DNA of 63,475 nucleotides, filler included, from Sphacelaria rigidula (taxonomy: Eukaryota), in assembly GCA_964200075.2 (NCBI GenBank). It is 9 parts of 9 records of this genome, joined end to end, with 100 filler letters (N's around TTAATTAATTAA, not from the genome) between each part and the next. Parts side by side here need not be neighbours in the genome. Positions count along the whole stretch, not along the records: positions 28,259 to 35,222 come from CAXNAA020017170.1; positions 35,323 to 42,286 come from CAXNAA020017171.1; 7 more parts are not named here. One strand, written 5' to 3'. The notes below the pieces were generated by a model. That model saw nothing but the letters and a program-made list of their open reading frames with translations. It ran no database searches and was not told the origin of the DNA. Made by a program: the position numbers and the translations under genes. Every line of letters starts with the position of its first letter. Positions within the stretch are counted from its first letter, which is position 1. Positions 6,966-55,553 of the stretch are shown here, in pieces.

Positions 6966-7065
6966 NNNNNNNNNNNNNNNNNNNNNNNNNNNNNNNNNNN
7001 NNNNNNNNNTTAATTAATTAANNNNNNNNNNNNNNNNNNNNNNNNNNNNNNNNNNNNNNNNNNNN
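6966..7065. other. Artificial scaffold linker (N44-TTAATTAATTAA-N44); also at 14031, 21095, 28159, 35223, 42287, 49350, 56413
   Basis: Identical 100-bp spacer with stops in all six frames, recurring about every 7064 bp. Scaffold lengths descend from 6965 to 6963. Confidence 0.97.
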
Positions 7066-7448: not shown

Positions 7449-9200
7449 TGCTTCAAGTGCCAAGCCCGCAAAACCTCACGACAGGCAATACGTTGACCCG
7501 TCATTTCTATGGCACTCCCCAGTGCCCCTGGCCATCTTATATCGTTCGAATACTTCAGTCCCTTACCGACTACGGATCGTGGCAACACCTACCTTTTAGT
7601 CTTCACTGACCATTACAGCCGCCATGCATCCATGTACGTCATCACCGGTGGAGACTTCACAGTCGCAGGCACAGCTGACATGTTGGTCCACGACTATGCC
7701 GAGCAGCATGGTTGCCCGAAACGACTCCTCTCCGACAATGGTCCGCAATTTTGTTCCGACCCCTCCGATGCACTCTACAAGCTCCACGGCATTCGCAAGA
7801 TCGCCACAAGCGCTTACCACCCCAATGGAAACGGCGGAGCTGAACGTGTTAATCACACTATGGCACAGATGCTTCCTATGGTTGTCAACACCGCCAAAAC
7901 GATTAGGACCTCCATCTGTCGCATATTATGCTATCCTACAACAACTCGGTTAACGCCGCTACTGGCCTCTCTCCGAATAAACTGCAACTGGGGCGCTACC
8001 CTTGATTGCCCATCACCGTGTTCGAAAGACACGCCTTCGATGGCCACCAAGGCCTAGATCAGGATCAGATGTCCTACCATGACCTCGCGCACGCGCGACA
8101 GCGCAAAGCCTTCACCCTCGTACGGGAACAACACGCTATCAACGCCTCGCGCGCGTTGAATATACAACACCGCTCTCTACAGCTTGATGCACAAACGTCC
8201 CACCTGGAAGGTTGGCGATTGGGTGTGGGTTTACAATAGTGTGTCGACTATCCGTCAAGGCGCTGACAGGGCCGCCAACGAGACAGTCTTGAAGACTAAA
8301 TTATCGCTTAACTGGACAGGGCCGTTGAAGATCTTGTCCGTTGGCCCCTCGCCATCATTTCCTAATGGGAAACCTGTTGATGACAAACCTGTCTATCTTG
8401 ACCTCCCTCGCGACTTTCGGGGACATGACGCTAAACCTCGCGTCTCCGTGCACCGGTGCAAAGTTTGCATGAACCCACATGACACTAGTGACATGCCGAA
8501 ATATTTGCCTGCCTGCGTAACCCAATACGTGCTAAACACCTACTCGATCAAGTCACCGCTTCATCACGTTACTGCCAACGACGTGACCGCACAACCTCTC
8601 CGCCTAGCCGTGTCCCATATCTCCGGCCACCAGATTACTCGCGGATGAGGAGGCAAAATCGCCGTCATGTACAAGACCCACTGGCACGGCCTTCGGCGGG
8701 CGTCTTGGGAACGCAAATCTGACCTTCAGTTGCACCGCCGTGCAATTCTTCTCTACTGGACGGAACCTGCACAGCAACATCTTGCTGAAAACAAGAAATA
8801 TTGCAGTATGTGCCACGGCGCTGCGACCCGCGGACTTCACCGCAACAAAGAACTACGCTTTGTTGATATTGGTCACGAATTAGTACCCACGAAACAATGG
8901 CCTGATAAGATCCACGCAAAATAGGGCGTGCTCCCTAAAGGTGCCTACTCGTGGTACAAGGGCAACGACAACCTCTGGTGGCCGTGCCAAATCCATTCAG
9001 TTGACCCTCACGCGGAGAGTGCCTACATCGTTCGCTTCATCGATGACCCTGGGCCCGTGCAGCTCAAGCTCCGCACAGAGGTTTACATCATCAGCCCATC
9101 AACACCACATGGTTCCTGGTGTCTATAACGGCTCAAATCCAAGGGCCTCCGTCAAACCATCCAGCGCATTGTCGATCGCACTCACAACGTCAACGCACCG
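7449..9200 (+). mobile_element. Decayed Ty3/Gypsy pol 3' half: integrase + chromo-like + PWWP-like domains
   Basis: CFKCQARK zinc-finger end; GNTYLLVFTDHYSR, LLSDNGPQF, SAYHPNGNGGAERVN; WKVGDWVWV..LSLNWTGP (GPY/F); YKTHWHGLRRASWE; WYKGNDNLWWPCQI..YIVRFID. Frameshifts and stops present. Confidence 0.9.
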
Positions 9201-12375: not shown

Positions 12376-13420
12376 TGCACAAGATAGGGTTGGCTGATAC
12401 ACGAGGCATTGCCTTGCCAACACCTTAATAGCACTTCATGCAGCCTGAAACCAAATACTTGGCGCTGTATGACCATTTTCTTCGTGACAGTGTTAGGCTG
12501 GTTCTGGGGGGGGGGGGATAATCGTAAAACTCGACGGTGTGTTTTGACTGGTTTTTCCTTTTTTAGTCAAGTCGAGGAAATTACGCATGACAACTTTGAC
12601 ATGTACCGCCAAAGAGTACACTGGTAATGCTGCAGAATGGAATCAAGCTCGTTAGCAGCTCCATCGGAGAGATCCCTGAGTCGATTGTCATATACAACGA
12701 GCACAGGCATAAGTATCCAGTTGGGACTCGGCTGCAACGCTTTTCTCGATCTCATCCCCGATTATGGTGATTTTTTTTTCACACTTGGGATGAAACAGTT
12801 CTGACGGTGATTTCCTGCAAGTAGGCCTCCAGGGGAGCGGAATAGTGTTCGAGATAGGCCTGGAGAAAAAGCTCAACCCACACATAGGCGAGAAAGACAA
12901 GTTTCGCGCATTTGGGGGGCAGAAGTTCGTGCGGAAGTGCCGAAATCACCTTGGCCAACTGAAACAAGAGAGTTTTGTATAAAATATTACCTCATCAACG
13001 ACGAAAATAAGATTATTAAAATATATGGTCATTTCGCTATTAAAACTCGTGACCTCCGTAAGTGGAGTTTCCCGTATCACCAGGGCGCAGCAGCGTCACA
13101 CAAAATGTTGCATGTGCAGCACAATTAATTGTTGAAGCTCTGAGCCGGAATGTCACAAGAATCTTCTGCGCGTGAGTGAAAATTTCGTGGCTGATGCTAC
13201 CACCGTTTATTTTTTATTTTTTAATGGAGCTATGACATTATCCAGTTTTACTGAAATTTAAAATATTCCTCTTATTTTCGAGGTTTTTTCTTGGCAGCTC
13301 GAGAAATACTTCACGTGTTGACAATGAAAATGCCGTGTCAGAGATTCAGCGCTTAACTCCTCAAATTGAGCTGCGTATCACCTACGAGTCTTTCTACGAT
13401 AGCCCCTCCCTCCAAAAAGT

Positions 13421-13998
13421 GAGCCTGGCCCGGCGAGAATCCGGCGTGCTACATCCCTGCGTTGTAGGCGCGGACCCCCGACGGGGTTGGCGTCGGTTGG
13501 CGACGACGCTATAAAACACGTCCATCACTGCGTAAGCTAGGCAACCAGGTTACCGATTTTATGTTGCGCGCTTGCGTTTTTTTTGCGGTAACCATGGTCG
13601 TAGTTGGGCTAGATCATGTTGTGTGGCGTGAGAGAACCTTAACTCCGCACAATGGGGATGATCGTACTACGTAGTGTTTAAATAGCCCATGAGGCAGTGT
13701 ATAAGCCATGGCTGTCTCTGAAAGTGGAGATACCAGAAAGTAAAGCAACTCATTGTAGGCTGTAATCCTAATGCAAGATGGTCAGTAGGCGTCGGGCCGA
13801 ACAAAATCTTAGCAGGATGCAGCTCACCCTTCATGCAACTCGCCAAACACACCACGGCGCTTTGCGCTTGATGCTGAGTGCAAGCCTGGCCCGGTGAAAA
13901 GCCGGCGTGCTCCTTCCCGGCTTTGTAGAGATGCGAGTTCAATGGTCTTATGGCTATGGCATATATGATCATGAGTGCACCCCCCCCCCCCCCCCCCC
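13421..13998 (+). mobile_element. Long copy of the poly(C)-tailed SINE-like retroposon
   Basis: Colinear over about 560 bp with 40670-41251. Ends ...atgatcatgagtgca followed by a C-run. Internal direct repeat gcctggcccgg...gcgtgct at 13423 and 13884. Confidence 0.8.
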
Positions 13999-14845
13999 AA
14001 AAAGTGGGCGGGTTTGGTAGGAAAAAACTANNNNNNNNNNNNNNNNNNNNNNNNNNNNNNNNNNNNNNNNNNNNTTAATTAATTAANNNNNNNNNNNNNN
14101 NNNNNNNNNNNNNNNNNNNNNNNNNNNNNNAAGTGTAGACTGAAAAAAAAAAACAAGCAGACAGCGGTATCAACCAGAAATGGTCGACCTCTGCAAAATG
14201 AATTCAGGTGGAAAAGGCATCGCCCAAAAACACATGCATTCATACCCAATCGAAGAACAAAAACCGTGGGAAAAGACTGCGGCTCATCCATTCGGCCACA
14301 CTATTTTGGGTAGAAGCGCGTACCCATGAACCCTAGGGAAGCTAGACACGAGACGAGACGAGACGAGAAGAAACGTGGCGCCATATTGTACGGCTGTATA
14401 CTGTCGACTGTGCAGTATCATTGCTGTGTTGTGCGCGCCTGCAGTCGTCGGGCTAGGACACAAAGGCAGGGGTCATAGGTCCCGTTCGGATACATGTGCC
14501 GGGCCCGACATTTTATGATACCGATTGAAGAAAATGTGATTTGTTTCGGCAGTAACAAATCTCGATCTGTACGCAGAAATAGGGGAATGTCTATTTTGTA
14601 CCCCAATGCACGTACAAACAATAAAATGCGTAAGGAAAGAAGGGATGGAGAAGGGCGGGTAGCGAGGCGCCACAGCACCATGTTTAAGAAAGAACAGATT
14701 ACAAGAAGCGTCTTATGCGTTTTCGGTGTGTGGTTGGGGCGTGTGGGTTGGGATGGGTCTTCAGTTGTTACGGGGTGTTTTGGACAAGGGGAAGATAATA
14801 TGATAATGATACATGTATGGTCCCAGTGAATTTTTCGGACTTCAT

Positions 14846-16439: not shown

Positions 16440-17600
16440 TGTTGTTGAATTGAATACCTTATTGATAAATGTATATTATACTCTCCACCCAAAACGTAAA
16501 AGACCCAGGAAAGTGCACTGAACATAAGGGGCGTGGTCAATCATGAAGAGCAACTCCTGTAGAAAAACAACACGTCAGAGCCTAATTCCTTGGCCACGCG
16601 ATTGGGCGTGTGTCTCTCAGGGGATTCTTGCTGCAACCAACAAATCGGGTATACCTTCAATAACAGAACTGTATCTCATTACTTGTCATTCACCCATATG
16701 TAATGGTCCAATCACCAAATCCATTTCCCTCGCATCCAGGCCTGCTTACATTTATGTATCAATCATTGAGTGTGAGTACATTCGATTAGCCCTCCTACTC
16801 ACGGCTCAACTCTACTCAATTCTCAAGTCTCATACTCTCATATTCCATTAGCCCTCCTTCTCACGGGCTAATTCTACTCACGTCTCAAACCCTACTAGGC
16901 AATATTCAAGGCTATATCACCAAGCACAAAAAAATCATCCCACCCGTGTACAGACATTTGGTGACGCCATCTACTTAGCAAACTGAAATTACTTCTTTTT
17001 GTCCTTTTCCTCAATACGTCATGACATACTCATGCTTTTCATCCATCCCATCACGCCTTCCAGTATTGAAAAAGAAGTCGAATTCAAAAACTCAAATCAT
17101 CGCAAACCAAAATGTGAAAAAAATCCCAGAGATATATTCAATAAAAATAGAAAACTTCATCAACCAAACGCAAAGTCGAAAACCAGCCCAGTTTCCGATA
17201 TTTGCTATGGCAACTTTTGTGGCACCCGAAGTCCATTACCAAAAACCATTGAAAAACATTTTGTCTGCAACAAAAAATCAAATCCGGTCGTGCCCGTCGA
17301 AGACCGAAATCCAACACGAAAAACCATTTAAAAATATTTTGTCTGCAACCAAAAATCAAATCCGGTCGTACCCGTCGAAGACCGAAATCCAACACCAGAA
17401 ACCATTGAAAATACATATTGTTTGCAACAAAAAATCAAATCCGGTCGTACCCGTCGAAGATAAAATAATTCATTGCAAAATTTCAAATATTGCAACCATG
17501 GCCTCGTACCCCTACTTTTCCGTGGTGGATAAATGTGCCCGAAAACAAATCAAACCAGCTCAAGCCAAACCAATGTACCAGTGTCTTGCGGACTCTACAT
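16440..17600 (+). mobile_element. Possible LTR + PBS + 5' leader with three tandem repeats of about 79 bp
   Basis: tgttg...aca followed by tttggtgacgcc (TGG PBS-like) at about 16957. The unit aaaaatcaaatccggtcgtrcccgtcgaaga occurs at about 17271, 17350 and 17428. Confidence 0.45.
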
Positions 17601-17652: not shown

Positions 17653-20600
17653 TTAGTGAGGAAATCTGCATGTTGGGTACTCCGATCTCACGTGAATACC
17701 CGAAGCCTCTTTCCTCCCAACCAACTCCCTGATGAAATGATGCCGTACGTCGATGTGCTTAGAGTTGGAGTTTGTGATTGGGTTCTTTGCCAACTGAATA
17801 GCTCCCTGATTATCCTCAAACACCGGGATGCATAGCATTCCCATCTGCGGCAACATGAAACGCCAAACCTGTCTCAAAAACAATACCTCCTTCAGAATAT
17901 CTGTCATCGCAACGTACTCTGCTTCCGTTGTGGACAGCGTCACACACTTCTGAGTCCTTGGAAACCAAGACACACATCCACCTCCACACATGGCTAGCCC
18001 TCCTGATACCGACCGCCTATCAGCTGCCTTACTTGCGTAGTCTGCGTCTGCAAATACATGAAAGCTCAACCCCTGTATACTTCCTCTGCGAAAAGAAATC
18101 CCCAGCGACCTTGGTCGCCTAACATACCCCAAAATACCAAGCGCAGCACGCCAATGAAGGTGTTTCGGTGAGGCACAGTACCTCGCTACTGCACGTACTG
18201 CGTTAGATATCTCTGGCCTCGTTTGAGTTGCCAGCCACATCAGTGACCCTATCAATTCTCGAAACGGAAATTCCGTTGCCTGCTCTTCAACACTGAACTC
18301 TTCACGCTTCGCACACCAACAGCGATGGGGATACTCTTTCCTCACTCTACTCCGTATTCCTTCGCCAACTCTTCTGCGTATGTTTGTTGTGCAATGTTCA
18401 GAGTTCCCCTTGCAATATCTCTCTCATAGTACAGTCCAGAAAACCAACGCAAATCCCCGAGGGTTTTGACTGGAACCATCGTGTTGAGATCTTTACCAAA
18501 CTGGTCAACTCTGTCTTTCCCTCCCACTGCGAATATGTCATCTACATGTACTGCAATGGTGATATTCACCCTGCCATCCTCAATCAACCGAAATACACAC
18601 GAATCCGCCACGTACTGATCAAATCCTAAGACAAATAAACATTCCGCCAGGTGATCATGTCATTGCGTACTTGCCTGTTTCAATCCGTACAAACTTTCAT
18701 TGAGTCTTACTATTTTACCAGATAAGATACCACAACCAAGTGGCCACCATATGAAAACATCCTCGTCCAACGCAGACTGTACGAAAGCTTGTTTGATATC
18801 AAAATGGCGCAACGCAAGATTTTGCTCACATGCCGGACTCGCCAACAAACGTACGCTAGAAACTGCTACAGTGGGTGCATACAACTCTCCAAAATCTATG
18901 TTCTCCCTCTGCATATCTCCTCTTACTACTAGTCTCGACTTCATCTTCGTGGGCCATCCAAACTCATCCGCCTTCCAGTTATATACCCACTTTGCATGGA
19001 CATAGTTTTCCACGAGTTGCTCTTCCGCTGAGTCTATTGTCCCCGCCTCCAGAATTCCCCGCCATTCCCGCCCCATCGAGTCCGTCCATAAATCACCGTA
19101 CTCCGAGCGCACCGCCTGCGTGTATCCGTTGGGGATCTTGAGATCCTTTGCAGGACAATGTGGGAGTTCCGGTGGGATGTGTGGCGGGCGCTGCTCACGC
19201 AAAGCGGTATCTATATCTTCACGCGTCGCCAGCCTCATCGCGAGTCACATCGGTATCCCCTCGGGCCCCCCTTTCTCAACATCGTTGCCCTGTTGCCCGG
19301 CATCAACCACACCGCGCGTGAGGAGAGCAGACGATAAATATCGCTTATCCAACTGCTGCATGGGTCCCTAGCTGTGGTGCAAGAGTGCAGCCTTGTCTGT
19401 CTTGTATTGCGTCGACCCTGACCGCGTCCGCCCTGGCTGCCGGGAGTCTGTTTCCAAATCCAGCTCCTTCCTCACGTTGATTGTGAGCGGCGAGAAAGAA
19501 TGGTCCATTACTTCAGGGGCGGATGATGCATCGCGCGACGCAGTCGAGGAAGATGCTGACGGTATCGGGGACGGGATCGGGGCCGAAGAGCCGGGGAAGT
19601 TCGGCGGGGATGTCGGCGGCGATCGATGCATCGGCGGAGTAGACGGGTGCGTCGGCGGCGGTAGTGCCGGCTGAGTCGGCGGAGTCGGCGGGCGCAGCGG
19701 CGGCAGGATCGGCTGAGTCGGCGGAGTCTGCTGGCGCGGCGGCGGCGGCGGCTCGAACTCCACTGTGTGATTTGTCGGCGGGAGCAGCGGTGTGGCGACG
19801 GGGGTGGCGGTGCTGCCATGAACCTCCCCCCCTCCGGCGAGCGGCGTTTGGACCTTCCTCCCCCCGGCGAGCGGCGTCCCGTGATGCTGCTCTGCTGACG
19901 GCGCGGCGGCGGCGGCAGCGGTACTGGAATGGGCCTCCTCCCCCCCGACGATCGGTATTGCTGATGATTGCAGTGGCACACGTGGTACCGTCCAGACAAT
20001 GTTGTTGGTGTAGCAGACGGCACCGGTAGCAGCCTTCAGGACCTTGACCGTCGATGAAGAATGGTTACTGCCATTATTGAGGTAATGGCAGGCTACGGAC
20101 TGAGCATCCATTTTGCCTCGGCGGTTGACCCGCATCATGCCGGGTTGTAGAAACGGCACAATCTACAGCGGCGGGCGCTTGCCGGTGAACACTTCATACG
20201 GCGATAGTCTTCCCGGGTTCGCCGTAGAAGCGGAACGATTGAACCCGTCTGCTGCCCACACCGCGGCCTCCAGCCACAGACGCTCCATGTTCTCCCCCAG
20301 GTGAGGTATGTCGTCGAAGCGGCACTCCGGGAACAGACGTCGCGCTTCAAGACGGGCGGCGTGGCCTCCCTTCATGACCCTCCAAATTGCATTTTCCACC
20401 ACAGCGTTGTGCTCCGGAGTGTCAGGGGCAGTGTACTTACGACGAGTCGTTGCATCGTCGCGGAAGGCGGCGAAATCGTTGGAGGTGAACTCGCCCCCGT
20501 TGTTCATGCGAAAAAAAACGGGGGTACCGATGGCGCTGACGTCGGCGATGAAACGTTTCATCTTCACTAGCGTGTCAGACTTACGTGCGAGGCCATAAAA

Positions 20601-21094
20601 CATCATGAAGCGCGACTTGCTGTCGACGCAGCCCAGCATATGGGTTGATGCACCCAGAGTACGAGGGTGTGGGCCGGTGAGGTCAAGATGCATCCTGCCA
20701 AGTACAGTCGTTGCCCTCGTGCCCAGGCTTCGCGGAATACCTGCCCTCTGTCCCTTCGCTTCCAAACACCCAGCACATAGCGCCAATACCCCCGTCAATG
20801 TAATGCCCTTTTGTTTCGCAGTTTCTCGGAGTAACGTCTCATGAATGTGGGGGAGGGAAACGTAAAAGAAATTAATATCGACTTCTTTTTTTGGTTTTCC
20901 AACTGAAAATGGGTGAGAGCTGGGGGCAAGAATAGCAAGGGCCGTCCCGTTTCTAGACACAACTCGCATTCCTTCACTCAGAAAACGCGGACAAAATCTT
21001 GGGGGGGGGGTCATGTCAAATCCAGCCATCAGGGCTTCATCCTTGAACACACTCAAGTCTGGACAGTGAAGCCCTTGTACTGCACGGAGGGAAC
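17653..21094 (-). mobile_element. Decayed Ty1/Copia pol (GAG-pre-integrase, integrase, RT, RNase H)
   Basis: MHLDLTGP, RMNNGGEF (catalytic D to N), TPEHNAVVEN; HFDIKQAFVQ, SLYGLKQAS, VHVDD; FADADYA, STTEAEY, SKHIDVRHHFIRE. Domain order IN-RT-RH. Confidence 0.95.
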
Positions 21095-24000
21095 NNNNNN
21101 NNNNNNNNNNNNNNNNNNNNNNNNNNNNNNNNNNNNNNTTAATTAATTAANNNNNNNNNNNNNNNNNNNNNNNNNNNNNNNNNNNNNNNNNNNNGTATTT
21201 CGTTTGATGGGAACTTGTCAGGTCGCAGTGCTACGTGAAGTGAAAGACGCGCGCTGATTTGCAGATTACCACGATGTGTCATAGTAGGCACAACTCGCGA
21301 TAGATCATCAGTTAGAACCGGCTGAAGGAACGTCTGCTTCTTAGGCGGCCCAGCCTGTACAGTGTACGATACAGTGGCCATGAGTTCAGTTCTCGGTGTA
21401 GGTGATGAACTATAAATAGTTGGTGCAGCAATGCGGCTTTTCCCGGGCCGTTTAACCCTTTTAGGACCGACCCCCCACTAACACAGGGTTTACCCTGTGT
21501 CGGTGAAATGATAAAAAACAAGTCTTCGAGCGACCTGCCCAATTACGGCGAGGCGAAATTTATAGACCAGACCCGAATGACCAGTGCTGGGGTTGTTGGC
21601 GAGTATGATGCCACTGTAAAGATCGTGTGGGGACCCCATCCCTGGCCCAGATAAGCCTTCGCAGGTTTCCAAGCGCAGGGCGGTCGGAGCTTGGTTACAT
21701 GATATGACTTGCACTCAGTATACCGTTCCCGAGTTTTCCGGTGGGTTTTGGGGTCTCAATTCCCTACTAAAACGTAGTAATTTACCCTAACACAGGGTCG
21801 GCCGGAAAAGCCGGGAAGGAGTGTATATGCTACCATGTGGTCATTTTCACCACGCCCTAAAACCAGGTGGGCTGTGGAAAGACAAAACGATCTACTGCCA
21901 TGAGTTCTGCTGATCCCTCTGACGATGACTTGCAGGGTGCAGTTAATATGTATGTAGTGGGTGGGGATGAAGAAGCGGTATGTAGGCAGTTGATCTCGGT
22001 ATCTAAGAATTGCCCAGAACGTGCAAGGGAGTATGCAGCGGCAGCTGCTGCTTCAGTCGGAGAGGCGTACTACACTGTACTGTACTGTACTGTTGCATGC
22101 ATGCGTGCCGCAACACTGATACCGTTCGAAGAGAATTTGCCGCATGCAACAAAGGGGGAAATAGCGGACCATCCCGACCACGAAGGGCTGTGTGGCAAGG
22201 TGATGGGGACAAAAGTATTATCCAAAGCCACAAGTGGCGGGCGGCCCGCCGGTCGCTGCATCCTGTTGGAAGCTCTCTACCGCGACCCTTACTGCTTGCT
22301 ACATCAAATGTACACGATTGCACCTGTGCACCTGAAAATAGACAAGATAAATTTTCGGTCTTCGTCTTAACCCTGCGCTTACGAACACGGATTTCCAGCA
22401 ACACGCCACTGTTTCGTGCAGACTCTAGACACGTCATTCCTGACCAGCCTCACTGGTCGTTCTGGAGGCCCGGTCCCGAAAGGGTTAACCAGACGGCTGC
22501 AAAGCGCACGACGCATGGTAGGCAACGACGCAGGGGAGAAGATGCGTCCATCTCACAACCTGCGCTTGGCGCAGTGGTACGTGGTTTTCCAATAGCACCT
22601 GCGCAATGGAATGACCACGATATACAGTAGCAAAATATTCCTCAGGCTAGGAGCAACAGAGAAGGAAATGATGTACCGCGTGAAGTATGGAGCCTACAGT
22701 AGTGAGCGGTCTAAATATTCACTCTCTGGCATTTTGTCTTGTTTTTTGTATTTGGCAATCTTCTTGGGCTCTTTTCGCTTGCTAACGTCACATTGGGGGT
22801 CTGAAGATATTTGTATCCGCTCTACACTCCGAGAAAAAAAAACATTTGCACTGAACTCAATATTGAGTGACTTACGGGCTGACCGGTCATCGTGGGTCCT
22901 GCCACGTTTCAGCCCAGATTCTGACTCTTCGGTATCTTCGGTCGATCGAGCCTGTCCCGATCATATTTGTGAAGAAATGTACACTTTTTTTTTTTTTTGA
23001 AAGTCCACCTACTCATTGCACCAGAGCCGAAAAAAGTGTTTCACAGTCAATAACACCCTCCTGATGAAACGGGTATTTAACCTTACCGCCCAATAACACC
23101 AGCTAACACTGACTTGGGCACTATGTTCCGAGGATGATTTCTTTATTGTGCCAAAATCTACCTACGCCAGCAATTCCGAGTTTTATCGAAGAGTAAGTAG
23201 TACGCGAGTAAAACCCCCAAACCCCCCTGAATAGCTAGACCGCCCACTACTGTATCGCCTATTGGCATCAGGCGAGAGACTCATACTTTACGCGCAGTAC
23301 ATTTTCCTTATTGGAACCATATTGCACCACATGTTATCTAAGGTGTGCTCTACGCATGTCGGGGTCCTCCCATGAACCAGCCATTATCTGCACGTGATGC
23401 TTGTAGTACACGAATGCCAACATTCCGGCGACGAAATTCCAACATTGAACCGTTCAGCCTCGATATTCAAGCCCCCAACGATACCGCGGTGACTTTGGGT
23501 TGTAGCACGTGGACATTTATCCTGACGTACAGTACTTCATTTTTTTTCCTTCCGGTGCAGCTAGCATTACTATAATCGTTTGCTGACTTCTGAAAGGTGC
23601 ACCCAGACAAAAGTCAATGATAATTGCACGGGCAACACACGTGTACAGGCACACTGCCCCCCATACACACATGCATGCCGCCGTCCACTGTTGTTGTCGT
23701 TGGTAGTGGATGTTATCAGCTACAATTGTCCGCTCACGCCTTTCGAGTACACTTCGCGCCGTGCACTTTTAGCTCTATCCGCGACCTTTTGTTGGCCAAA
23801 CGACGAGGCACGACAAATATCCGATCAACTATAAGATCAAGCTTCGCAGGTGTTTTCAGAGCAAACGTTCTCAGCATCAAGTTGACAAGACACTCGGTTC
23901 CTCATGCGTACATCATTCGAGCTGAAATACTGTCGCGCTTGACGTATCAACGAGTTCGCTAACCGTGTATCGCATTGCAATGTACGTCAGTGTAGTCAAC

Positions 24001-26797: not shown

Positions 26798-28258
26798 GTA
26801 TATGCGTGCACAACTGTTTCACGGCGTTGGCGGGCATGACTTCGTTTTGTTTACACTTGTTGCGAACGATTCTGGTCGTCCGTGCATGGTGAATATGTCG
26901 CGGGTGAACTCGATGAACTTTGCACGCAACAGCCTGATGTCGTTCGGAGATCGGAAGACATGTCGTACTTTTGGGTGAGTGTACCTTATGGCAAGAGCAC
27001 CAAAGTGCACATCCATCGTTGCTTTGCCCCTCTTGGGAGAAGTGACACAGGGCAATTTACCCGCCATAGAACCCGCCACAAATGGGTACAATATCTGTCA
27101 GAGTCAGGCATTTCCCGAAATTCAGCTACACGTTTGGGAAAGGATACGGAAAACTCCAGGTGTGGCCATGTCTTCCTTCAGAAAGGGGTATGCGACGGTT
27201 TCGATCAGTTTCGTGACTGGGAGGCTGGCCGGCCTGTGCTATCCGTATACCGCGCACCTGAAAATGGTGGGAATATGTCCAGGCATACCTGGATGTGTCG
27301 TTTACTCTACTATGCTATTAGTTATTTGCGGACTAGATGTACTATATTGTTTTAAAATTCGCCTGACAAGGAGAGTCGGAAATGAAAAGTGAGCCACAGC
27401 CACAAACCTGGTGGTGGTGTGCCTGGGTATCGGTGTATCGCTGTATGGTCGATTCGATTGTTCGATCGACCGTCGCATATTAGCTGATTTGCCACGAATC
27501 TAGGCATGGTCTCAAGATGAACATACCCAGGGCAAACAAATGGAAACACCTGGTAGAGCGAAACTCAAGGAGGACGAGCTATGAGAGGGAGAGAAGGAGA
27601 GGACATCCAGGGTAACTTAGAACATGCGAAAAAAAGAGCAGAGCAAAGCAAACACGAGAAAGTACAAGAAGAGAAAACACGAGAGCTCAAACCCGAACAC
27701 GAGAGGAGAAGGAACGCGCTCGAAGAAAAAACGAGAGAGAAACGAGGGGAATACAAAGCGAAGAAAGGAAAGAGAAGGAGAAAGAGAAAGAGGAACAGAA
27801 AACAAATGTCTCGCAAACATACAACGTCAACCCCCCAAGGAAACGAGAAAAGGTACGACAGGCCTCTGCTGCATGGCTTCAACAACAGAGGTAATGCGAA
27901 AACAAGACAAGGCGAAACAAAGAGAACGCATGATGGATGATGACGTGAAAGAAGCTTGTGACCCAGGAATCGGGGGACTGCAGTGTTTGGGAGGGAACTA
28001 TCACAACAGACTTCTACTTGAGCGACACACACACATATGGAAAAAAGGCAGAGAGTGCGTGGGTGGGCGGGTGGTGGCGGGGGGGGGGGGGGGGGGGGGG
28101 GGGGTGTGTTTTTTTTGTTGTCCTTGGCGGGGGGGCTTTTGCCCCCGCGCCCCTTTCGNNNNNNNNNNNNNNNNNNNNNNNNNNNNNNNNNNNNNNNNNN
28201 NNTTAATTAATTAANNNNNNNNNNNNNNNNNNNNNNNNNNNNNNNNNNNNNNNNNNNN

Positions 28259-34088: not shown

Positions 34089-34281
34089 TGGGGGTGTACT
34101 CATGACCTTGCATGCCGTAGTCATGTGACCAACGGCCTCTCATCCCTACAAGGCAGGGATGGAGCACGCCGGGTTTTCGCCGGACTAGGCTTGGAAATAT
34201 CGTTTCGAGGGGAGGTGTACTCGTGATTCATGATCTTGCATGCGATAGTCATACGGCCATTGACCTCGTATCCCTACAAAG
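34089..34281 (-). mobile_element. Two tandem truncated copies of the poly(C)-tailed retroposon
   Basis: G-rich lead + tgtactc...catccctacaa..gggayggagcacgccggg at about 34089 and 34208. Confidence 0.8.
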
Positions 34282-34553
34282 CCGGGACGGAGCACGCCGG
34301 GTCATTCTACTCTTTGTGTTGTTATTTCCACTTTTCTGTTTTCTTCAGCTTCCTCCAAGGAGTATTTCCGTTTTGTTATATTTTGGATACGTCTATCATA
34401 TGGATAATGACAACGGCTGGATCGTGACTCCTGGGAAATCACTTGATGTTCGACAATCAATTCACCAATCAATCAATCAATCGGTTCATAGTCTTGATAT
34501 CCAAATACGGACAGTTTCCTACCTATCTAGAGTGATTACTCTCACAAAGCAAA

Positions 34554-34598: not shown

Positions 34599-35464
34599 GC
34601 TGCACCACTGCCATGGACCAGTAACTATTCGATACCAAGCGCAAAAAACACGAAGAAAAATTGAAGATGAATGAAGCCAGATCTGCCAGAAAACAACCAT
34701 GACATTTAGAACTTAGCTTGCAGTCATTCTGCACCATCCGTCCGGCGATCTCTGTCTTGGAGCATTATGTGACAAGCATTCCAACGCGAGGTGATCTCCA
34801 AGTGAAGAACTGCACCACATCCCCAGTTATGCACTCAAGCCCAATTTGGGGGGAAGGGGACAATAAATCTAAGTAGATCAATTGCCCACCGTAGCCAAAC
34901 TTCTCACAACTGAAGATGCTCCGCGTGTCGAGGGTATGCTGCTGGGCTCGGAGCAAGGTATACATACTCTGATTTCTCTAATAGAGGTTGATGCGAGTTG
35001 ACTGCGAGTCGGAAAGATCGAACGAATAAGATCAAAACAAAATAGGGGTGCATCTGAGTTATCTGGCGACCATGCCGCGCCCTATAGCCACGGTGTGAGG
35101 AAGACTCATTGTACCTTTTACGAGTTATCTGTGTACTTAGCATCACCCTATGCGAGGCTGTTTGCAGGGACGTCCATACTTCTTCGGCCGAATGTGCAAA
35201 ATATACTTGGAAGGCCAAAAAGNNNNNNNNNNNNNNNNNNNNNNNNNNNNNNNNNNNNNNNNNNNNTTAATTAATTAANNNNNNNNNNNNNNNNNNNNNN
35301 NNNNNNNNNNNNNNNNNNNNNNGGTTCCGTAAACCCCCCTCCCCCCCCCCGCCGCCCCAACGGGGCGGCGGGGTAATCCCCCCCCCCCCCCCCCCCCGCG
35401 CCATAACGGGGTGTACTCATGACTATGGCATGCATGATCATGAGTACACCCCCCCGCGCCATAA

Positions 35465-38400
35465 GCGGGGGTCTGCGATGCAAGCAACCCCGACGCCCGG
35501 CGGAGCGAGGGATGACCAGATCGAAGGAGGGCCGGCCGGCAGCGAGTCCGCGGAGCAAACCCCGGTGACGCGTGCTCCATCACGCGGTTCACGTCGCGTG
35601 TCGTTCTCGCTCTCCAACTCCGAACGGTACGCAGAAGACGCCACACCGCAGACCCCCGCCAATGGCGCGGGGGGGGTGAGATGACCTCGCCGCCTCCTTG
35701 CAGAGGCGGGGGGGGGGGGCAGGAGATTTTACGAAACCCAGTACAACATCTCATCGATAAGCGGAGCTCGGTGCCGACAATAACGCCGTCAACGCCGACA
35801 GCCGCAGCGCCGACAACAATGCCAGAACGGCCACCCGTATCGCCGGCGCCGCATCCACCTGCGGCATCACCAACATTGTCGCCGACAACCGTCGCCACCC
35901 CCGAGCGCAACGACGGGGGGGGGCGGTGGAGCTCCCGATCTTCCAAGCACGGAGCTACACCGTCTTGCACTCGACGCCAAGTTATCTCTGCCTCCGTAAA
36001 TGGCAGAGCGCACGCGCAGTGCGACGAGAGCGGCAGCCGACCGGAACGAGCTAGCATCGACGGCAGAGGAGCCGGAGAAAATGCAGGCGTGGCAAAGAGA
36101 TGAATATTTTCCCCGCGTGATGGCGAGGGCTCAAGCGACGGCTCAAGCGGAAACTGTCCTGTATGGAATGGCGGAGGATACGTGCGGCATGATAGACCTG
36201 ATCGCTACAGCAGCCGGGCCAGAGGTGGGAGGCAGCACGGCCATGCTGATCGAGGAGACTTTCGCGGAGCAGGAGTATTTTTAGTTTTCGGCCGAAAACT
36301 AAACAGACGCAGAACCCAACTTTGGTTTGCGTTCCCCCATCGGTCTTCACGGTAGAGATGTCGAAATCCCCCCCGTAACAGCAGAAAAAGTGGAAAAATC
36401 AGAGTACAAGGGAATATTGTTGAGTGCTATGCGCGCAGAACTGAATGGGCATAAATCCGCGGTACCTGTGCAAGAAAGGAAGTCCCAAGAAAATGAAACA
36501 GCATTACAGCAAAGTGGGTGTTGAGTTGGGAAACCGATCCTAACCGTTCAATCGCCCGTTCAACGCCATAGCGAAAGCCAGACTTTTAGCGCGTGGGTTT
36601 GGCGAGAGATTCGCGGTTGACTGTTTTGAGACCTTTGCAGCCACCCCAGCCATAGCATCAATAAAACTGGTCATGGCCGTGGCAGTGCAGAGAGGATGCC
36701 CGCTGTATCACTTCGATGTTACACAAGCCTTGGTACGAGCAAAAATGGACACGGGTGTGTTCATCAAGCTCCCAGACGGGTGTGTCCCCTTGACGGAAAA
36801 TACAGTTAGACTGGAGAAATTCGTTTACGGAATCAAGCAAGCAGGGAGGCAATGGTCCCTTCTCCTAAACAAAACTTCGATGGAGGGTGCAAGGATGTCA
36901 CAAACTAAAGCTGAACCGTGTGTATACAAGCCGGAGGAAAGAATGAGTGTATGTGTCATATTAATAGTGCATGTAGACGACATCTTGATTGGAGGTGAAA
37001 CTAAAAGAGGAGAGAAAGTCTGTGATATCCTAAACAAGAGATTTCCGACCAACAATCTAGGTGAAGTCCAGTGGTATATGGGGTGTGCCATATAGAGGGA
37101 CTGGGGACGAGGTATCACGTATGTAAATCAGATGACATTTATCGACATCATGCTGAAGCGTTTTGAACTTACGGATCTTTTTGACATTCCTGCCTCAGTA
37201 TCAGCAGACTTAGGACCGGTGAAGCAAGGAGACAAGGTGGTAGACAGACCATACCGGACTGCCGTGTACTCATGATCATGCATGTCATAGTCATACGACC
37301 ATTGACCTTGCATCCCTACAATGCCGGGACGGAGTGCCGTGGGGGGATTGATGTGGTTGGCTGGAGTAATCAGGCCTGACATAGCAAATGCAGCCCAGGA
37401 CCTGGCCCGTCAATCACATGACTCATGCGAAAGACACTGACAAGGAGTGTTGAAAGTTTTGGCGTACCTCAACACAACAAGAAATTACGGTGTGGCTTTC
37501 AGTTCAGGGGAAAGAAGGCTCTCGGCCTATTGTGATGCCGACTACGCCAAGAAAGATACAGACAGGCGATCAGTTTCCGGGGTAGCGGTCATGTACGGAG
37601 GGATAGCAGTATCGAGTACTAGTCGAACGCAACACTGCATTACCCTGTCAACCACCGAGGCAGAGTACGTAGCTATGGCAGAAGGGGCGAAATAATGTAT
37701 GTTTGTCAGGTCGGTACTATCTTTCCTACGACCAAGAGTTGTGTTGGGACGAAAAGCGGAGTATGGCGTTGTTCTCTATGAGGACAATGAGGGGGCTAAG
37801 GCTCTGGCCGACAGCCCTCTCAGCTCGGGTCGCAGCAAGCATATCGACGTGAGACGGCACTTTATTAGGAACGTGGTTAGGATGGCAGCAGTAAGTATCA
37901 TACATGTGGATTCAGAGTGGCAACACGCTGATATTCTTACAAAGCCGCTCCCAACCACGCTGTTCAAGAGGCATCGTCGCGCCTTGATATGCATTGAGGA
38001 CAGCGAGTAGGCACATATTTCGTTTTTGTGTGTGTCTTTCGATTTGTCAGCTCTGGATGTTTCAGGTCATGGTTTCTGTAATGCAGCTGCACTTATGTCG
38101 GGTGAAGCCGCTCACGCTACTTTGTGGGGCATAGGTTTGTAGGGCGTTTCCCGTTGTCAAGTGCAGGTGCCGTGGCCTAGGCGTGTGCGAAAAGGGCTGT
38201 TTGTTTTCGAGCACAAGCGGTTGAATTTGGGTGATGAGGAGTGTTGCTCGGAAGGCCGAGTTTCCTCCGCATTATTATTTTGTTTTTAGCTTTAGGTGCT
38301 GAGGTATCCGATCAGGGGGGGTGTTCGAGTGATTCAGATACTCAGTTATGCTGGATCTACGTTGAACAGGGGGTCGGGGTGACGTACGAGTACTGGCGGT

Positions 38401-38560
38401 CAAGTGTGCGCAATTGTGGTACAGTACGGTCCGCGGGGGTGAGCACGCTGCACCCACCCGAACACTCTCGTCTGCCTCCCTCTTCTTCAGCACTCTCCCA
38501 AGTTACAGTATCACTTGGGTGCTCTCTAATAAACGATATAATACTATTACCCTGTACCTG
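35465..38560 (+). mobile_element. Decayed Ty1/Copia element (linker, RT, RNase H, PPT and probable 3' LTR)
   Basis: HFDVTQAL, FVYGIKQAGRQW, VHVDD, PYRSAVGGLMWL (interrupted), YCDADYA, STTEAEY, SKHIDVRRHFIR. PPT-like aggggggg followed by tgtt at about 38314-38325. Confidence 0.92.
37255..37341 (-). mobile_element. Short retroposon insertion in Copia RT with a 12-bp target-site duplication
   Basis: cggactgccgtg (37255-66) and cggagtgccgtg (37330-41). Removing 75 bp restores PYRSAVGGLMWL. Confidence 0.85.
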
Positions 38561-38576
38561 AGCCAAGGAATACGCT

Positions 38577-38843
38577 AGTGAGCTCTCACTGGCTCAATGG
38601 GTAAACTGTTATCTTCCTGAACAAAAGGTTGGAAGTTCGAGTCCCGGCTTGATCGATTGTGGAAGGAACGATTTTGACAGGTGAACAGTGCGGCTTGCAA
38701 GGGACAAGGTATCTCGGAGATCACTCATGTGTCATGCCGGGACGGACCACACAGCACATCTCTTGTTCAGGAAGCGAACAGTTTACTCATTGAAGGAGTG
38801 AGCGCTCACTGGTGCAATGGGTAAACTGTTCGCTTCCTGAACA
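38577..38843. mobile_element. tRNA-like (A/B box) element whose head is repeated in inverted orientation
   Basis: A-box tggctcaatgg (38591) and B-box agttcgagtcc (38634). 80-bp palindrome at 38764-38843. Confidence 0.65.
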
Positions 38844-40554
38844 CACCGGCAGTGTCGCCGACAATTCCGACAACTCCGGTAGCCCCGAAAGTGTCCGTTT
38901 CGGCTAGGGTTAGACTCACGGTTAGGAAGTATCGGCGACAGTGTCGAAAGTATCGGCGATATCGTCGGAAGTGTAGGGGGCGTTATCCGGAGTGTCGTTG
39001 ACACCGCTCAGTGTCACCGATACTTTCGAGAGCGTCGCCAACAGGTTTCGAAATTGTCGCAAACACTATCGGAAGTGTCGCCGCCACTGTAAGAGCTGTT
39101 GACCACTTCAGTATATAACCCAAGGCCGCAGAAGATTATGCGCTTCAGGAGACCTGTTTTATCCTGCTATAACATGACTCTCACGAAAAAAATCGACTCG
39201 CAAATATGGTCGCCTCGCCACGTTTGCATTCGATCACCTCGAGCGTAGCTGTATGACGAACACCCTTGCGTCCAGCACGCTTTCCCCCACGGAAGCCAGA
39301 TGCTCGAATTGAAGAACACTCAAGTTGCGGCGGTGTCGGCAATACCAAACTCTCAAGCTCTCACCCACACGTCTTCCACCTCAACCGTAGCTCTAATCCT
39401 ATCCCCAGCCTTGACGATAAAAGCCCTTGCTAGCCTGTGTGTGACTGATACTTTTGAAAGATCGAGCAACACAATCCGTACTGTTGCTAAGGAGAGCTGG
39501 GATATCGACGATAGAAACTGACGTACCGCAGGCACTTTCGAAAGTTAGAGTGACATCCTCGCTCTGTTGGTGACGATGGGGACGTGTCGGTGACACTTTC
39601 CGGTTTGGTTGCAGGCCCATTCTTACCTCGATTTTCAGCGTGGGCCTTCGAGTTTGGTATCGAGAACCAACAGGGTAAAATTAAGGGATAAAAGCTGTGG
39701 GAGGTTCAGTTTGTTTTTTTCACGATTCAAGGGCAGAAAACGGTATCTGTTTTTTTCGAAACTCCCGCAAGTCATGCAAACAAAATTTTAATGGCGTCAA
39801 AACTTAGTTTTGATTGTGCCCTGTTGCATTTCCATACCAAATTTAAAGGCACAACTCTCACAATTGAGGTTAGAATGTGAGAATGAATGATTCAGAGCCT
39901 GGGCCGGTCGAAACTCGGAGCAATAGTTTGCAGTTTATTCTCCAGCCCAGTTTCGGTCTCTTGTACTTCGACATTTTGTGTGAAGAATCGCAAGGGCATT
40001 GTAAGTGAATGGCTGGGACATGGCAATCTATCCATTCCCTCTTTGTTTTTGGGAACGTGTAGTGAAGTGAGGATCAATTATCCCCGAGAGCGTCCTGAAC
40101 TCACGAAAACAAATGCGGGTTCACTCTTGCTTTTTTCGCAAATAATCCTTGCGATTTTACTCACAATTTCGAAGCACAACTCTAAAGACTGAGCTGAGAA
40201 CCTGAACTGAGGGCCGAAAACATTGTTCATTCTTGACTGGAACGCCCCCAAGACATCACAAAAAGAACCTCAAGGAGCTGGAAATTTTCCCACAATGCCC
40301 TAGCGATTCTCCATACCAAATTTGAGAGTACAACTCTCAAACCTGAGACAAGTCATGCTACGACAGGGGGCGTCAGGATGGGCGGGGGCGGGCGTACTCA
40401 TTTGTTGCTTGCCTTAGTCGTTCGACCATTGACCACGCATCCCTTTCGAGACGGAGCAAGCGGGGAGCAGGGGGGGGGGGGGGTGGGTTGACCTCACGAA
40501 GAAAACAGCTGGATGTGTCAGACGACCTAACACACTCGCGGCGCACTTATATTT

Positions 40555-41220
40555 GGGTAAAAGCGGTGTCAAGCGGTATAAACTCCTTTTTTTATCGCGT
40601 TTCGAACCCCTCGCCCTCCTCGGGACGAGTCCGTGGCCTCAGGGGATCAACCCATCTCTCCTCGGTACAACCTGATGCGGCGAGGACCCAGCGTGTTCCG
40701 TCTCGGCTTTATAGGGACGGACCCCCTAAGGGGTGGTTGTCAGGTGACAGTGACGCTGTAAAACACGTCACTCACTGCGTGAGCTAGGCTACCAGGTTGC
40801 CGTTTTGTTTGCACGCTTGCATTTTTTCGCGGTCATCATGATGGTGGTCGGGCTAGATCATAATGTGCAGGGTGGGAGAATCTCAACTCCGCCCATAAGG
40901 AATTATCATACTACGTAGTGTTGGAATGGTGTGGCACCTATGAGGCAGTGTGAAATTTATGCCTGTCTCTGGAATTGACGGTACCAGAAAATGAAGCAAC
41001 TCGCTGGAGGCTGTCGTCCTAATGCAAGGCAATCAGAACGCTTCGAGCCGAACAATCTTAGGATGCAGCTCACCCTTCATGCGACTCGCCGAAGATATCG
41101 CGGCGCATCGCACTTGGTGATTGAGTGCGAGCGTGGTCCGGCGAAAACCCGGTGTGCTCCGTCTCGGCTTCGTAGGGATGCGAGGTGAATGGTCATATGG
41201 CCACGGCATGCAAAATAATG

Positions 41221-41384: not shown

Positions 41385-42200
41385 CACCTTGAATCGAAGA
41401 GTAGGGTGGACGATATACAACGGAGGTTTGAAAATATAGCAGCAGATGTACATAAGTATCAAAGGCAAGGAGAAGTAAGTTATTGGGAGATTTCGATGCA
41501 AGAGTAGGAACAGCAGATCAACCGGATGATATCATTGGGCAATACGGGGAGGGTAAGAAGAACATGAATGGGATAGAAATGCTCAAGTTCCTCGAGCGAC
41601 GCGGGATGAACACGCAGAACGATAGAGCACAAAAGCCAGACGCGCAATGGACGTGGACTAGAAAATGCAAAAACGAGATATAATGTTCCGTTCCTGACTG
41701 TATAGTGGTAAAGCATGGAAATAGTAAAGAAATCGAAGTACATGTATGCGCGGAGGACGTGGGAACCACAGATCATTGCCTAATATGGAGAGAAAGCCAA
41801 TCGACGGGTCGTACAAATGGAGAATCGATAAACTAGATATGGAAGAAAAACTGCAAGAGTTCCAAGAAGAGATGGCAAAAAAGAGCAGTACATTTTTCCG
41901 AGCTGTTGGAACCCGTAGGTACACTTGATATCGAAATGGAAATGTTCAGGCAAGATCATAGAAGGATGGGAGCAGATGGTCAAGAACACAGCGAGTAAAG
42001 CCATAGGAAGAGACCTGATCGTTTGCAACAGAGCAGTAAAATGGTGGGATGAGGGGGTAAAAGAGGCTATAAGAGTAAGAAGAGACGCCCACGCGAGATG
42101 CATGTCGAGTAAAACTACGGCAGGATGGGAGGAGTATACTGTAAAGTTCGAAAGGAAGTAAAAAATATGGTGAAGCCAAGGGTCTGTCGAGAGAAAACAA
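41385..42200 (+). mobile_element. LINE apurinic-endonuclease (APE) domain fragment, frameshifted
   Basis: LGDFDARVG, NMNGIEMLKFL, WTW, DCIVV, VGTTDHCLIW, followed by VKWWDEGVKEAI. Confidence 0.9.
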
Positions 42201-42211
42201 TCGGACACGGA

Positions 42212-42286
42212 GCCCCCCCCCCTTTGTAGCGATGCGAGGTCAACGGTCTGATGACTATGCCATGCATGATCATGAGTACACCCCCC
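42212..42286 (+). mobile_element. Short copy of the poly(C)-tailed retroposon between two C-runs
   Basis: C-run + tttgtagcgatgcgaggtca...catgatcatgagtaca + C-run at the scaffold end. Confidence 0.75.
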
Positions 42287-43531
42287 NNNNNNNNNNNNNN
42301 NNNNNNNNNNNNNNNNNNNNNNNNNNNNNNTTAATTAATTAANNNNNNNNNNNNNNNNNNNNNNNNNNNNNNNNNNNNNNNNNNNNTGAGCCTCTTTTTT
42401 CGTGCAACCAAATACACCCCCCCCCTATCGTAGGATGACTCAGAAGTGGTATGTTGAAGGGTAGATTCAATAAACACGCTGTCCTGTGGTCATGTGTTGG
42501 ACTTCGTACAGCACAAACTGTTGGGTGTGTTCGGCGACTGAGGAGTGGGTTCTGTAGGAATTTACATCACAGGTTAGGTGGGCAAGCACGATTGAAGAGA
42601 TGAAGAGACGCAGAGGTGAAAACAGAAACGGTTGTTTCTGTTTTCACGCCCGCGATTCACTCCTCGTTAATGTCCCTAGCCTCTGGTTGGAGGTTTGGTT
42701 TTGATTTCAAGGCATTGTCTTATCATAGTGCGGCGACATCAGGACGGCGCCAGTAATATATTCCAAAGGCGAATCAAAAGCATATTATATTTTCTTATTC
42801 TGGTATATCAGTACCCACATTTCTCTTGGATCATGATTGAACAAGACGCTTAACTTCCATAAAAACGGACAGAAGACAGTCGGATACCAAGCATTACAAA
42901 GTATGACACATGGAGACTAGTCGACTAAAAAATGACCAATCAATCCGTAACAACAGTACAACTGACTCTCTGTACGGTATCGCTGTAGTTTACCGCACCG
43001 CAATGCACCTTTGTAGGGTTCTGTATTGCACTGTCTGTACTCCATACTGCACAGCACTGCAGCGCAAGAGCACAACTACAGCGCTAGAGCACTACTATGT
43101 CCTATAGTACGCCGTAGTGAATTAAAGTACTGCAGGTGCAGTGAAGCGTAGTGTATGGTGCATAATGTGCCGCAGGGTACGGGCAGTCAGCGTTGTGCCG
43201 GCCCATACACTTTTGAACTGGGCGGTGGTCGATCGTACATTTGACGGGGCAACCTGCGGCCAATCAATGCGAAAAAATACTCCCGCCAAGCCACGTCACA
43301 TCAGCTTCCGCTATGAAATTTGTAACGTCTATTCTGACGTTTCGAAGCTTCCACTCTGCACTCTGCACTCTGACGCCATGATAAAAACAAACATCTTCCG
43401 AATCTCTATATTATCAACTGATTCAATTTTTCCATCTGGAGCACTAGAGCTCCAAGATTGTCGTAACCGCCAACTTTGAGGGGGATCTGAGCCTTCTCCA
43501 AAAATTCTATGACAATAAATAAAGGGGAAAG

Positions 43532-50171: not shown

Positions 50172-51167
50172 TCAGACACGGTCTCAACATAGGGCCTGCG
50201 TTTACAAAATCAGCCATGAGTGAAACCGAAAACTCTACGAGTAGTGATGAGGAGCCCCGAAAGCACCTTGTCCGCACGGTGTTATAGTTATGTAGACTGC
50301 TGCCGAGATAGCCCCCCCCCCCCCCCCCCCCCCCCCACAAAACCCCCGAGCGCGCGCGAGGAACAGCCCCTCAACAATGGGTTCTTTTGTCCCNNNNNNN
50401 NNNGTCCGCACGGTGTTATAGTTATGTAGACTGCTGCCGAGATAGCCCCCCCCCCCCCCGAACCGGCCAAAAACGTGCACGGAGGCGATGATCGTAACTG
50501 CCGTTAAAGCTGGTTTCGTTCTGCACGACGCGACTGATTTGAGCGTTATATAGCTGATTTCGGACTGCTACACTCCTCTCATGTGGGCGAAATTGCTGCA
50601 AACGAGCCCAATAGTGGGATCGAAGCCGGTTCGTTGGATGGTGCCGGTGCACTTTTTGTGGGGGGGCTATTTCGGCATTAGTCTGTACTATGGTATTCTC
50701 CTTGCACTCTGTGACCACGGGTTCGAGAAATCGAGCTAATGTGATGGATATAATAATAATAACTATAGCTTTTGTTGTTGATGGAGTCATCCTACGACAA
50801 AGGGGGGGAGGGGGGGGGGGTCATTTTTCCCACGCAATTTCACCTTGGAATGTCGTTGAAAGCAGCAACGCTTGTTCGAACGGGCTTGTTACCGATAAAT
50901 AACACTCATTCATACTCCCGCAAAGGGTGTGTACGAAAGATCATTGTTGCCTTGATTTCGAGGTGAAAAATAAGACGACTTCAGTCCGAAAATGATCCTT
51001 TCGCACATACCCGTTGGGGAAACGGAAGACGGGGAACCCCAAAAAACATTTTTAGGGAGGTCGGAGGGCATGAGGTCGTGCATATGACAGTCATTGTTCA
51101 TGCCATTAAGGCAGAGGAAGCACTCTTTTAGGCTTGAAACTTTTTCTTGGGGCGATACACAAAATAG

Positions 51168-54949: not shown

Positions 54950-55553
54950 ATGCTCCCCGTAGGAGGCGAAAACACCCAGTGTCGCCAGTATCCACCAGTA
55001 TAAGGGGGCGAAATATCCAGTATAGTTAGTATCACCAGTGTCCGCCAGTATCAGGCTGCGAATTACCCAGTTACCCAGTTACCCAGTTACCCAGTTACCA
55101 GTATCCGCCACAGTATGATGCGAAGTACTCAATATCGTCAGTATTCGCCAGTATTAGGCGGCGAAATACCCAGTATATCGCCGGTATCCGCCAGTGTAAG
55201 AAGGCGAAATGCCAAGTATCGTCAATATCCGCCAGTATCGGGAGGCGAAATGCCCCCTGTCGCCAGTATCCGCGCCAGTATGAGGCGGTGAAATACCCCG
55301 TGAATGAAATTAAGAGATGTGGTAGCTTCATATTTTCCAGTATCATGCATCGGCGAGGGACGCTCTGCCGCACAAACGCTCACACGGAGAAGACCCCTAC
55401 TGGTCGCGACCCGCACAACATCTCTCTCAGCTCTACGAATATCACCGGTATCCACCAGAATGATATTCGGAACTCCGGGGGGCGTACGGATACGAGCCAG
55501 TACGGTAATTCATACGGGTCATACATACTGGTACGGGTCATACGGGGAGCATC
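54950..55553. mobile_element. TIR-bounded element containing a gccagtatc/ggcgaaat minisatellite
   Basis: gatgctccccgta (54950) / tacggggagcatc (55541-53). (TTACCCAG)4 at 55063-55094. Direct repeats gttcatgggyacaaaattgcaccgcatctcaag at about 54870 and 55580. Confidence 0.6.

Follow-up and report, generated by a model that had tools for sequence, protein, structure and literature searches.

The window analysed here is a stretch of 63,475 nucleotides from Sphacelaria rigidula (GCA_964200075.2) and consists of nine length-sorted contigs of 6,963-6,965 bp each. These were joined by 100-bp N spacers with a stop linker, across which features are not readable:

6966-7065, 14031-14130, 21095-21194 and 28159-28258: artificial 100-bp spacers at contig joins
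35223-35322, 42287-42386, 49350-49449 and 56413-56512: artificial 100-bp spacers at contig joins

The window is repeat-rich eukaryotic DNA with remains of Copia reverse transcriptase (RT) and integrase. Decayed LTR retrotransposons with Copia-type RVT_2 regions were located at 35900-38850 and 17653-21092, and a decayed, integrase-bearing LTR retrotransposon remnant at 7497-8900. Additionally, a direct repeat of ~45 bp was present near 38580 and 38800, and tandem arrays were found at 17226-17460 (78-bp unit) and 55098-55298 (unit of about 41 bp). A near-perfect long hairpin at 1778-1976, with sub-threshold matches to miRNA families in Rfam, probably represents either a miRNA-like locus of brown algae or a MITE.

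The sequence-only reading had listed 11 copies of one retroposon family with a common 3' end, at positions 2, 86, 13421, 34089, 34208, 35408, 37263, 40381, 40555, 42212 and 56513. Its 30-nt motif was indeed present at 35419-35448, and four matches with at most three mismatches were obtained in the window versus none in 100 shuffles. Homologous copies were found at or adjoining all 11 positions, with the reservation that homology at 40555 was recognisable only from about 40671. A single consensus could not be maintained, since the quoted one fits only 7 of the 11 copies. Alignment splits them into two families, namely seven copies of a non-autonomous type and four (2, 86, 40381 and 56513) with a variant end. 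The two types of 3' end were 73-79% identical over 52-63 nt, and about 65 nt of 3' end are common to both families. When oriented on the C-strand, the copies have a fixed 3' end and a variable 5' end, and range in length from 42 to 558 bp. Besides the focal copy, which is given further below, the following copies and one related fragment were annotated (P numbers refer to database LINE proteins):

3-68, minus strand: 5'-truncated LINE 3' end, last 19 amino acids plus stop; 19/19 to P0017, 17/19 to P0008
88-153, minus strand: 5'-truncated LINE 3' end with C8 upstream and C15 downstream; 15/17 to P0017
13422-13979, plus strand: long copy A, 558 bp, then C19; duplication of at least 10 bp at 13412-13421 and 13997-14006
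34095-34194, minus strand: truncated copy, head-to-tail after 34216-34303
34216-34303, minus strand: truncated copy with C-rich 3' flank; no duplication found
37267-37334, minus strand: truncated copy in a Copia RT reading frame; 7-bp duplication at 37260-37266 and 37335-37341
40394-40458, minus strand: 5'-truncated LINE 3' end with C14 upstream, C-rich downstream; 17/19 to P0008 and P0017
40671-41221, plus strand: long copy B, at least 551 bp, then C31; 5' end not fixed
41391-42143, plus strand: decayed fragment of the APE endonuclease plus linker of the autonomous LINE with stops and frameshifts, beginning after a C21 run
42223-42280, plus strand: truncated copy with C10 upstream and at least C6 downstream, up to the contig end
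56524-56585, minus strand: 5'-truncated LINE 3' end; 14/19 to P0008; 11-bp low-complexity, C-rich duplication; contig end

The 3' ends had further been described as usually running into a C-run, and this held for all evaluable copies except one. At least seven C were present in the first 10 nt of the 3' flank in eight of the nine copies having 10 nt there (window background 0.93% of 124,426 positions), the 3' boundaries being set by the analyst for this count. The exception was the copy at 37263 (4/10 C). Of the two copies with shorter flanks, the one at 42212 showed 6/6 C before the contig end and the one at 2 had a 3' flank of only 2 nt. Upstream, a C-run of at least 6 within 25 nt was found in 7 of 11 copies (background 1.2%). 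The upstream C-run of the copy at 2 is the C-run of the preceding copy, as copy 3-68 lies head-to-tail after 88-153 with a C15 run between them. Such upstream C-runs cannot derive from a tail. In this nine-contig window, six of the 11 copies extend to about 100 bp or less from a contig end, and assemblies break at repeats and homopolymers; therefore copy density and C-run lengths are biased and unreliable. A short similar motif was also seen after C-rich runs at 42417-42441, 50784-50808 and about 40345-40370, which is possibly the end of another repeat family.

Four public runs, representing at most 4 samples from 2 studies, were compared as contigs. C or G runs were found behind position 35455 in the consensus of 762, 349, 647 and 123 records, and before position 40390 in the consensus of 494, 468 and 537 records, with an agreement of 0.38-0.46. 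The summed depth of family-bearing bins was in the millions versus 60-75 in single-copy bins of run X1, a value which is not a copy number.

The focal insertion is composed as follows:

35391-35406, plus strand: left copy of a 16-bp target-site duplication, its C7 being the end of a C20 run at 35378-35397
35407-35448, plus strand: focal insertion of 42 bp, consisting of an extra base, an inverted 3'-end piece and the last 30 nt of the element
35449-35464, plus strand: right copy of the 16-bp duplication, its C-run holding no C in addition to the 7 duplicated ones

The duplication (C7 followed by gcgccataa) was exact as proposed; among 20,000 random flank pairs, three reached 10 bp or more. The insert had been taken for a plain 5'-truncated copy, which had to be abandoned. 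The terminal 30 nt of the non-autonomous type make up 35419-35448; 35408-35418, with 4 G, derives from the 3' end of the element itself in inverted orientation, and 35408-35422 forms a perfect 15-bp inverted repeat of 35438-35452. Two origins of this inverted repeat are conceivable: the nascent cDNA may have folded back on itself at a 4-nt microhomology, or the second strand may have been primed on another RNA 3' end.

In all four public runs we also observed a C-run running straight into an inverted LINE 3' end (joints 35397-35399 to 40390-40397), with up to 36 contigs per joint among the joints listed. Since such joints occur in all four runs, the structure is recurrent; the joints could also stem from insertions in opposite orientation. 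The usual inversion of L1 is an internal 5' inversion and differs from this arrangement. An empty-site joint for the focal copy or the copy at 37263 was not present among the best 15 of 2,050 joints in the four runs.

The automated search for duplications returned 16 bp for the focal copy, 11 bp of low complexity for the copy at 56513 and 10 bp for 13422-13979. In total, C-initiated duplications of 16, 11, 10 and 7 bp were present. No clear duplication was found in five of the 11 copies (2, 86, 34089, 34208 and B), and it was short or all-C in two (40381 and 42212).

The hairpin of the focal copy with its perfect 15-bp inverted repeat, as well as the position of six of the 11 copies near contig ends, would be expected if the motif had arisen as an assembly artefact at homopolymers or belonged to a MITE as its terminal inverted repeat. 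We consider this extremely unlikely. The inverted repeat occurs in one of the 11 copies, the others being polar with a fixed 3' and a variable 5' end. Furthermore, a Copia frame in the middle of a contig is broken by the copy at 37263 with a clean 7-bp duplication, the frame reading PYRTA to its left and AVGGLMWLA to its right. The LINE C-terminus encoded by four copies also contradicts such a reading.

This coding capacity was evident from a reverse search of LINE proteins on the window, in which the four variant copies matched the last 19 residues of P0008 with 17/19, 17/19, 14/19 and 13/17. The element continues for only 4-5 nt after the LINE stop codon. Upstream of 40458, the most frequent continuation gave GGVSIRSRNG on hand translation in each of the four public runs, corresponding to the residues just before the C-terminal 19 of the LINE protein. 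A C-terminal Cys/His motif of this protein was read by eye, the automated pattern having missed P0008 due to its spacing. Since the copies encode the C-terminus, the upstream continuation matches and the proteins of Ectocarpus agree, the C-flanked sequence is literally the 3' terminus of an APE-type LINE. The assignment to a non-LTR system was thereby upheld, with variable 5' truncation, C-run-initiated duplications and four copies that represent the 3' end of an APE-RT LINE ORF.

With P0008, tblastn on 41391-42143 gave three pieces of 54-76% identity (E about 1e-74). Used as a query, this endonuclease fragment found two relatives among 8 candidates, and one cluster of 87 included full-length proteins of 1,412 aa. 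The related LINE proteins are of the APE-endonuclease/reverse-transcriptase type and 1,360-1,412 aa in size; P0008 and P0011 carry Exo_endo_phos and RVT_1. A single ORF with APE endonuclease and non-LTR RT is thus found in the database relatives P0008 and P0011, and the window holds the endonuclease fragment and the C-terminal 19 codons only. Exact-pattern scans of metagenome and viral contigs and a protein scan of viral contigs revealed no full-length element DNA joining the RT gene to a C-run.

Among 93 relatives the closest named proteins were P0020 (67%) and P0019 (59%), both of Ectocarpus. The C-terminus of P0020 was alike as well (16/19 to the copy at 2), and the ends of P0019 and P0021 were similar. 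In a quick RT tree of 88 out of 94 proteins, built without a labelled RTE-X reference, P0008, P0017 and P0018 were sister to four Ectocarpus proteins with a support of 100; the six proteins dropped for too little RT coverage included P0020. A search of representative proteins with P0002 and an Atlas search returned relatives without names and no clade label.

The sequence-only reading had known of no described poly(C)-tailed family. This has to be corrected, as the available table of transposable elements of Ectocarpus includes RTE-X LINEs ending in (C)n with C-rich target-site duplications and a partner of ~600 bp (PMC12477816). RTEX is a clade in Repbase (PMC5753468). In the Ectocarpus table, RTEX-1_Ec32 is described by 'single EN-RT ORF; (C)n 3'' and a 'C-rich' TSD (PMC12477816, Supplementary Material 3) and RTEX-2_Ec32 by '(C)n termini/TSD' (PMC12477816). 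Two non-autonomous families are given in the same source: RTEX-N1_Ec32 of 607 bp (also 604), which can be tandem and whose 60-bp 3' end is 83% to RTEX-1/-2, and RTEX-N2_Ec32 of 188 bp (PMC12477816). With 16,418 copies and 3.41% of the genome, RTE-X is recorded there as one of the most abundant repeats of Ectocarpus (PMC12477816). RTE-X was the only fit among the table rows compared, because the ends listed are (CAA)n for RTE families and (CA)n for CRE (PMC12477816). The (C)n-ended feature stands in the supplementary table and was not found in the main text as far as available (PMC12477816).

The LINE described here is probably RTE-X, a label based on the fit to the published description and on orthologous proteins. 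As described in the table entries, RTEX-1/-2_Ec32 likewise have a single EN-RT ORF, a (C)n 3' end, a C-rich TSD and many truncated copies; the likeness is one of description and orthologous proteins. Two Ectocarpus groups supply the closest named proteins, and one of these groups shares its C-terminus with our LINE. In contrast to the focal insertion with its inverted 5' piece, the table entries for RTEX-1/-2_Ec32 mention neither inverted 5' pieces nor a mechanism. Overall, the family is a further case of a described brown-algal kind, (C)n-ended RTE-X being already catalogued in Ectocarpus.

The seven copies matching the first consensus include two long ones, A with 558 bp and B with at least 551 bp, which were 76.6% identical over 576 columns. 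Several blocks of 11-22 nt were identical between A and B despite this overall value. Copy A is probably truncated, because it is bounded by a duplication. Both long copies carried an internal direct repeat of ~48 bp about 460 bp apart (13421-13468/13883-13930 in A, 40678-40717/41139-41178 in B), the upstream repeat being the start of the terminal unit without its last ~47 nt.

The long family showed no coding signal, with substitutions spread evenly over codon positions, and its longest tested frame had no Pfam match. A tblastn comparison with 55 LINE proteins was without match at E 1e-4. Apparently, the long family is a non-coding partner of the LINE. Rfam detected no ribozyme or structured RNA on any of the copies at E up to 1, and the only hits were sub-threshold miRNA-type hairpins, elsewhere or at 41081-41150. 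A consensus stem-loop predicted in the common 3' end (13 pairs, -4.18 kcal/mol) showed a two-sided change in only one pair and is unsupported. As to a tRNA-derived head, ARAGORN reported no gene at default, 90 or 80 thresholds and Rfam no tRNA match. A weak tRNA-like resemblance to A and B boxes was seen at 40555-40610, upstream of copy B, which was not significant in ARAGORN and Rfam but would be relevant to the head of RTEX-N1-like elements. In the window, 11-mers resembling a B box, such as that at 40599, occur 10 times.

The partner resembles RTEX-N1_Ec32, as listed in the table, in about 60 bp of 3' end common with the LINE, in the C-rich TSD and possible tandem arrangement, and in a head of unexplained origin. 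The listed size of about 600 bp (607/604 bp) compares with at least 551 and 558 bp here, where the true 5' end is not fixed. The internal repeat of ~48 bp is not mentioned in the entries for RTEX-N1 and -N2.

Two features are reminiscent of Penelope-like elements (PLE), namely the inverted 5' piece at 35408 and the repeat inside both long copies. According to PMC8557442 and PMC9977147, the Penelope-like Chlamys elements target (C)n, which is an independent precedent, and show partial tandems, inverted 5' pieces and tails of 30-40 bp; they occur in Ectocarpus according to the table (PMC12477816). A Chlamys PLE was our first working idea and was dropped on the basis of the Ectocarpus RTE-X table and the LINE C-terminus in four copies. 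The seven non-coding-type copies could still be a non-autonomous Chlamys family with pseudo-LTRs and tail, moved by a GIY-YIG/PLE enzyme targeting (C)n. The published features named above, the very short 5'-truncated copies, the upstream ~48-bp repeat without its last ~47 nt and the one inverted 5' piece would agree with this. However, their 3' end matches that of the LINE itself with 73-79% identity (52-63 nt), as is listed for RTEX-N1. The ~48-bp repeats, moreover, were not clearly closer within a copy (9 and 11/48 differences) than between the two 3' repeats (9). No trace of a PLE protein was found; Chlamys uses a GIY-YIG endonuclease and a PLE-type RT, whereas the ORF linked to this 3' end encodes an APE endonuclease (Exo_endo_phos) and RVT_1. 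We therefore regard a Penelope-like origin of these copies as very unlikely.

Based on these data we consider it highly probable that an APE-type LINE and a non-coding partner with a common 3' end, the counterparts of RTEX-1/-2 and RTEX-N1, insert at C/G runs and that the terminal C are templated. Bound to the common 3' end of either RNA, the LINE protein would nick the G-rich strand inside a G-run or at its border. The 3' end released there, rich in G, could then pair with a few C at the RNA end and prime reverse transcription, a staggered second nick would give the C-initiated duplication, and early stops would lead to copies of 60-100 bp. The C at the RNA end would most likely be templated by read-through into the C-run holding the source copy, with slippage altering the length of the run. 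A fresh copy would keep its terminal C-run as a target for the next insertion; the tandems would arise because new copies become targets in this way. Nicking of the target strand, priming by the freed 3' end, the second nick and the use of a common 3' end by a partner belong to general LINE biology.

In target-primed reverse transcription of L1 and Alu, a LINE and its dependent element show a 3' homopolymer merging with the duplication and 5' truncation. The same combination of LINE and dependent partner, homopolymer 3' junction merging with the duplication and 5' truncation was found here. The differences are C/G instead of A/T, a specific 3' end common to LINE and partner, and the lack of extra tail bases in two of three informative copies.

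Alternatively, the RNA of the same LINE might end in a genuine poly(C) tail that is non-templated and synthesised by a nucleotidyl transferase or the RT, as a C/G mirror of poly(A)/T-run priming in L1. The C19 and C31 after the two long copies point in this direction. In copy A the C19 on the right is longer than the degenerate, C-rich stretch of 11 nt on the left, and copy B is followed by C31; both fit an added tail as well as slippage. A long C consensus past the 3' end in hundreds of contigs and the 4 G of the inverted piece at 35408, which 4 or more C on the RNA would predict, are likewise in agreement with a tail. However, all 7 C at 35449 are explained by duplication of the C20 target, and homopolymer lengths at contig ends are unreliable. 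The copy at 37263, with its C6 target on the 5' side, has at most 1 C next to this C6 (the nick being placed one base into the G-run), whereas a long tail should usually leave extra C. Among the three informative duplications, the C on the right side were fewer than in the target run in two and more in one. The target together with its duplication suffices to explain much of the C at the junctions, and we regard a non-templated tail as unlikely. A search of the literature, with most subscription journals and Repbase outside its scope, found no poly(C)-tailed retrotransposon RNA or mechanism; the Blepharisma passages retrieved concern the TIR of a DNA transposon and not a poly(C) retroposon (PMC9942856).

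An extended version of this alternative would combine the non-templated poly(C) tail with a G-run-specific APE endonuclease, as the mirror of L1, and with priming of both target strands on the RNA 3' end. We give this combination a low probability. Priming of both strands on the RNA 3' end would explain the arrangement at 35408 and the similar joints in the four public runs. A real poly(C) tail, if true, would be new RNA biology, which the junctions analysed here do not require.

For the preferred reading, with insertion at C/G runs and templated C, a LINE nicking G-runs would provide a useful example of an APE endonuclease with altered specificity. Both the C/G homopolymers of brown-algal genomes and the breaks in their assemblies may partly be explained by such a LINE. 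Finally, many C-termini of P0022-P0047, distant LINE proteins of about 40% identity, were seen to have a GC(V/E)VNG-like ending similar to the brown-algal motif. These endings hint that a 3' RNA element within the ORF may be ancient and conserved; if true, the system could be old and widespread.
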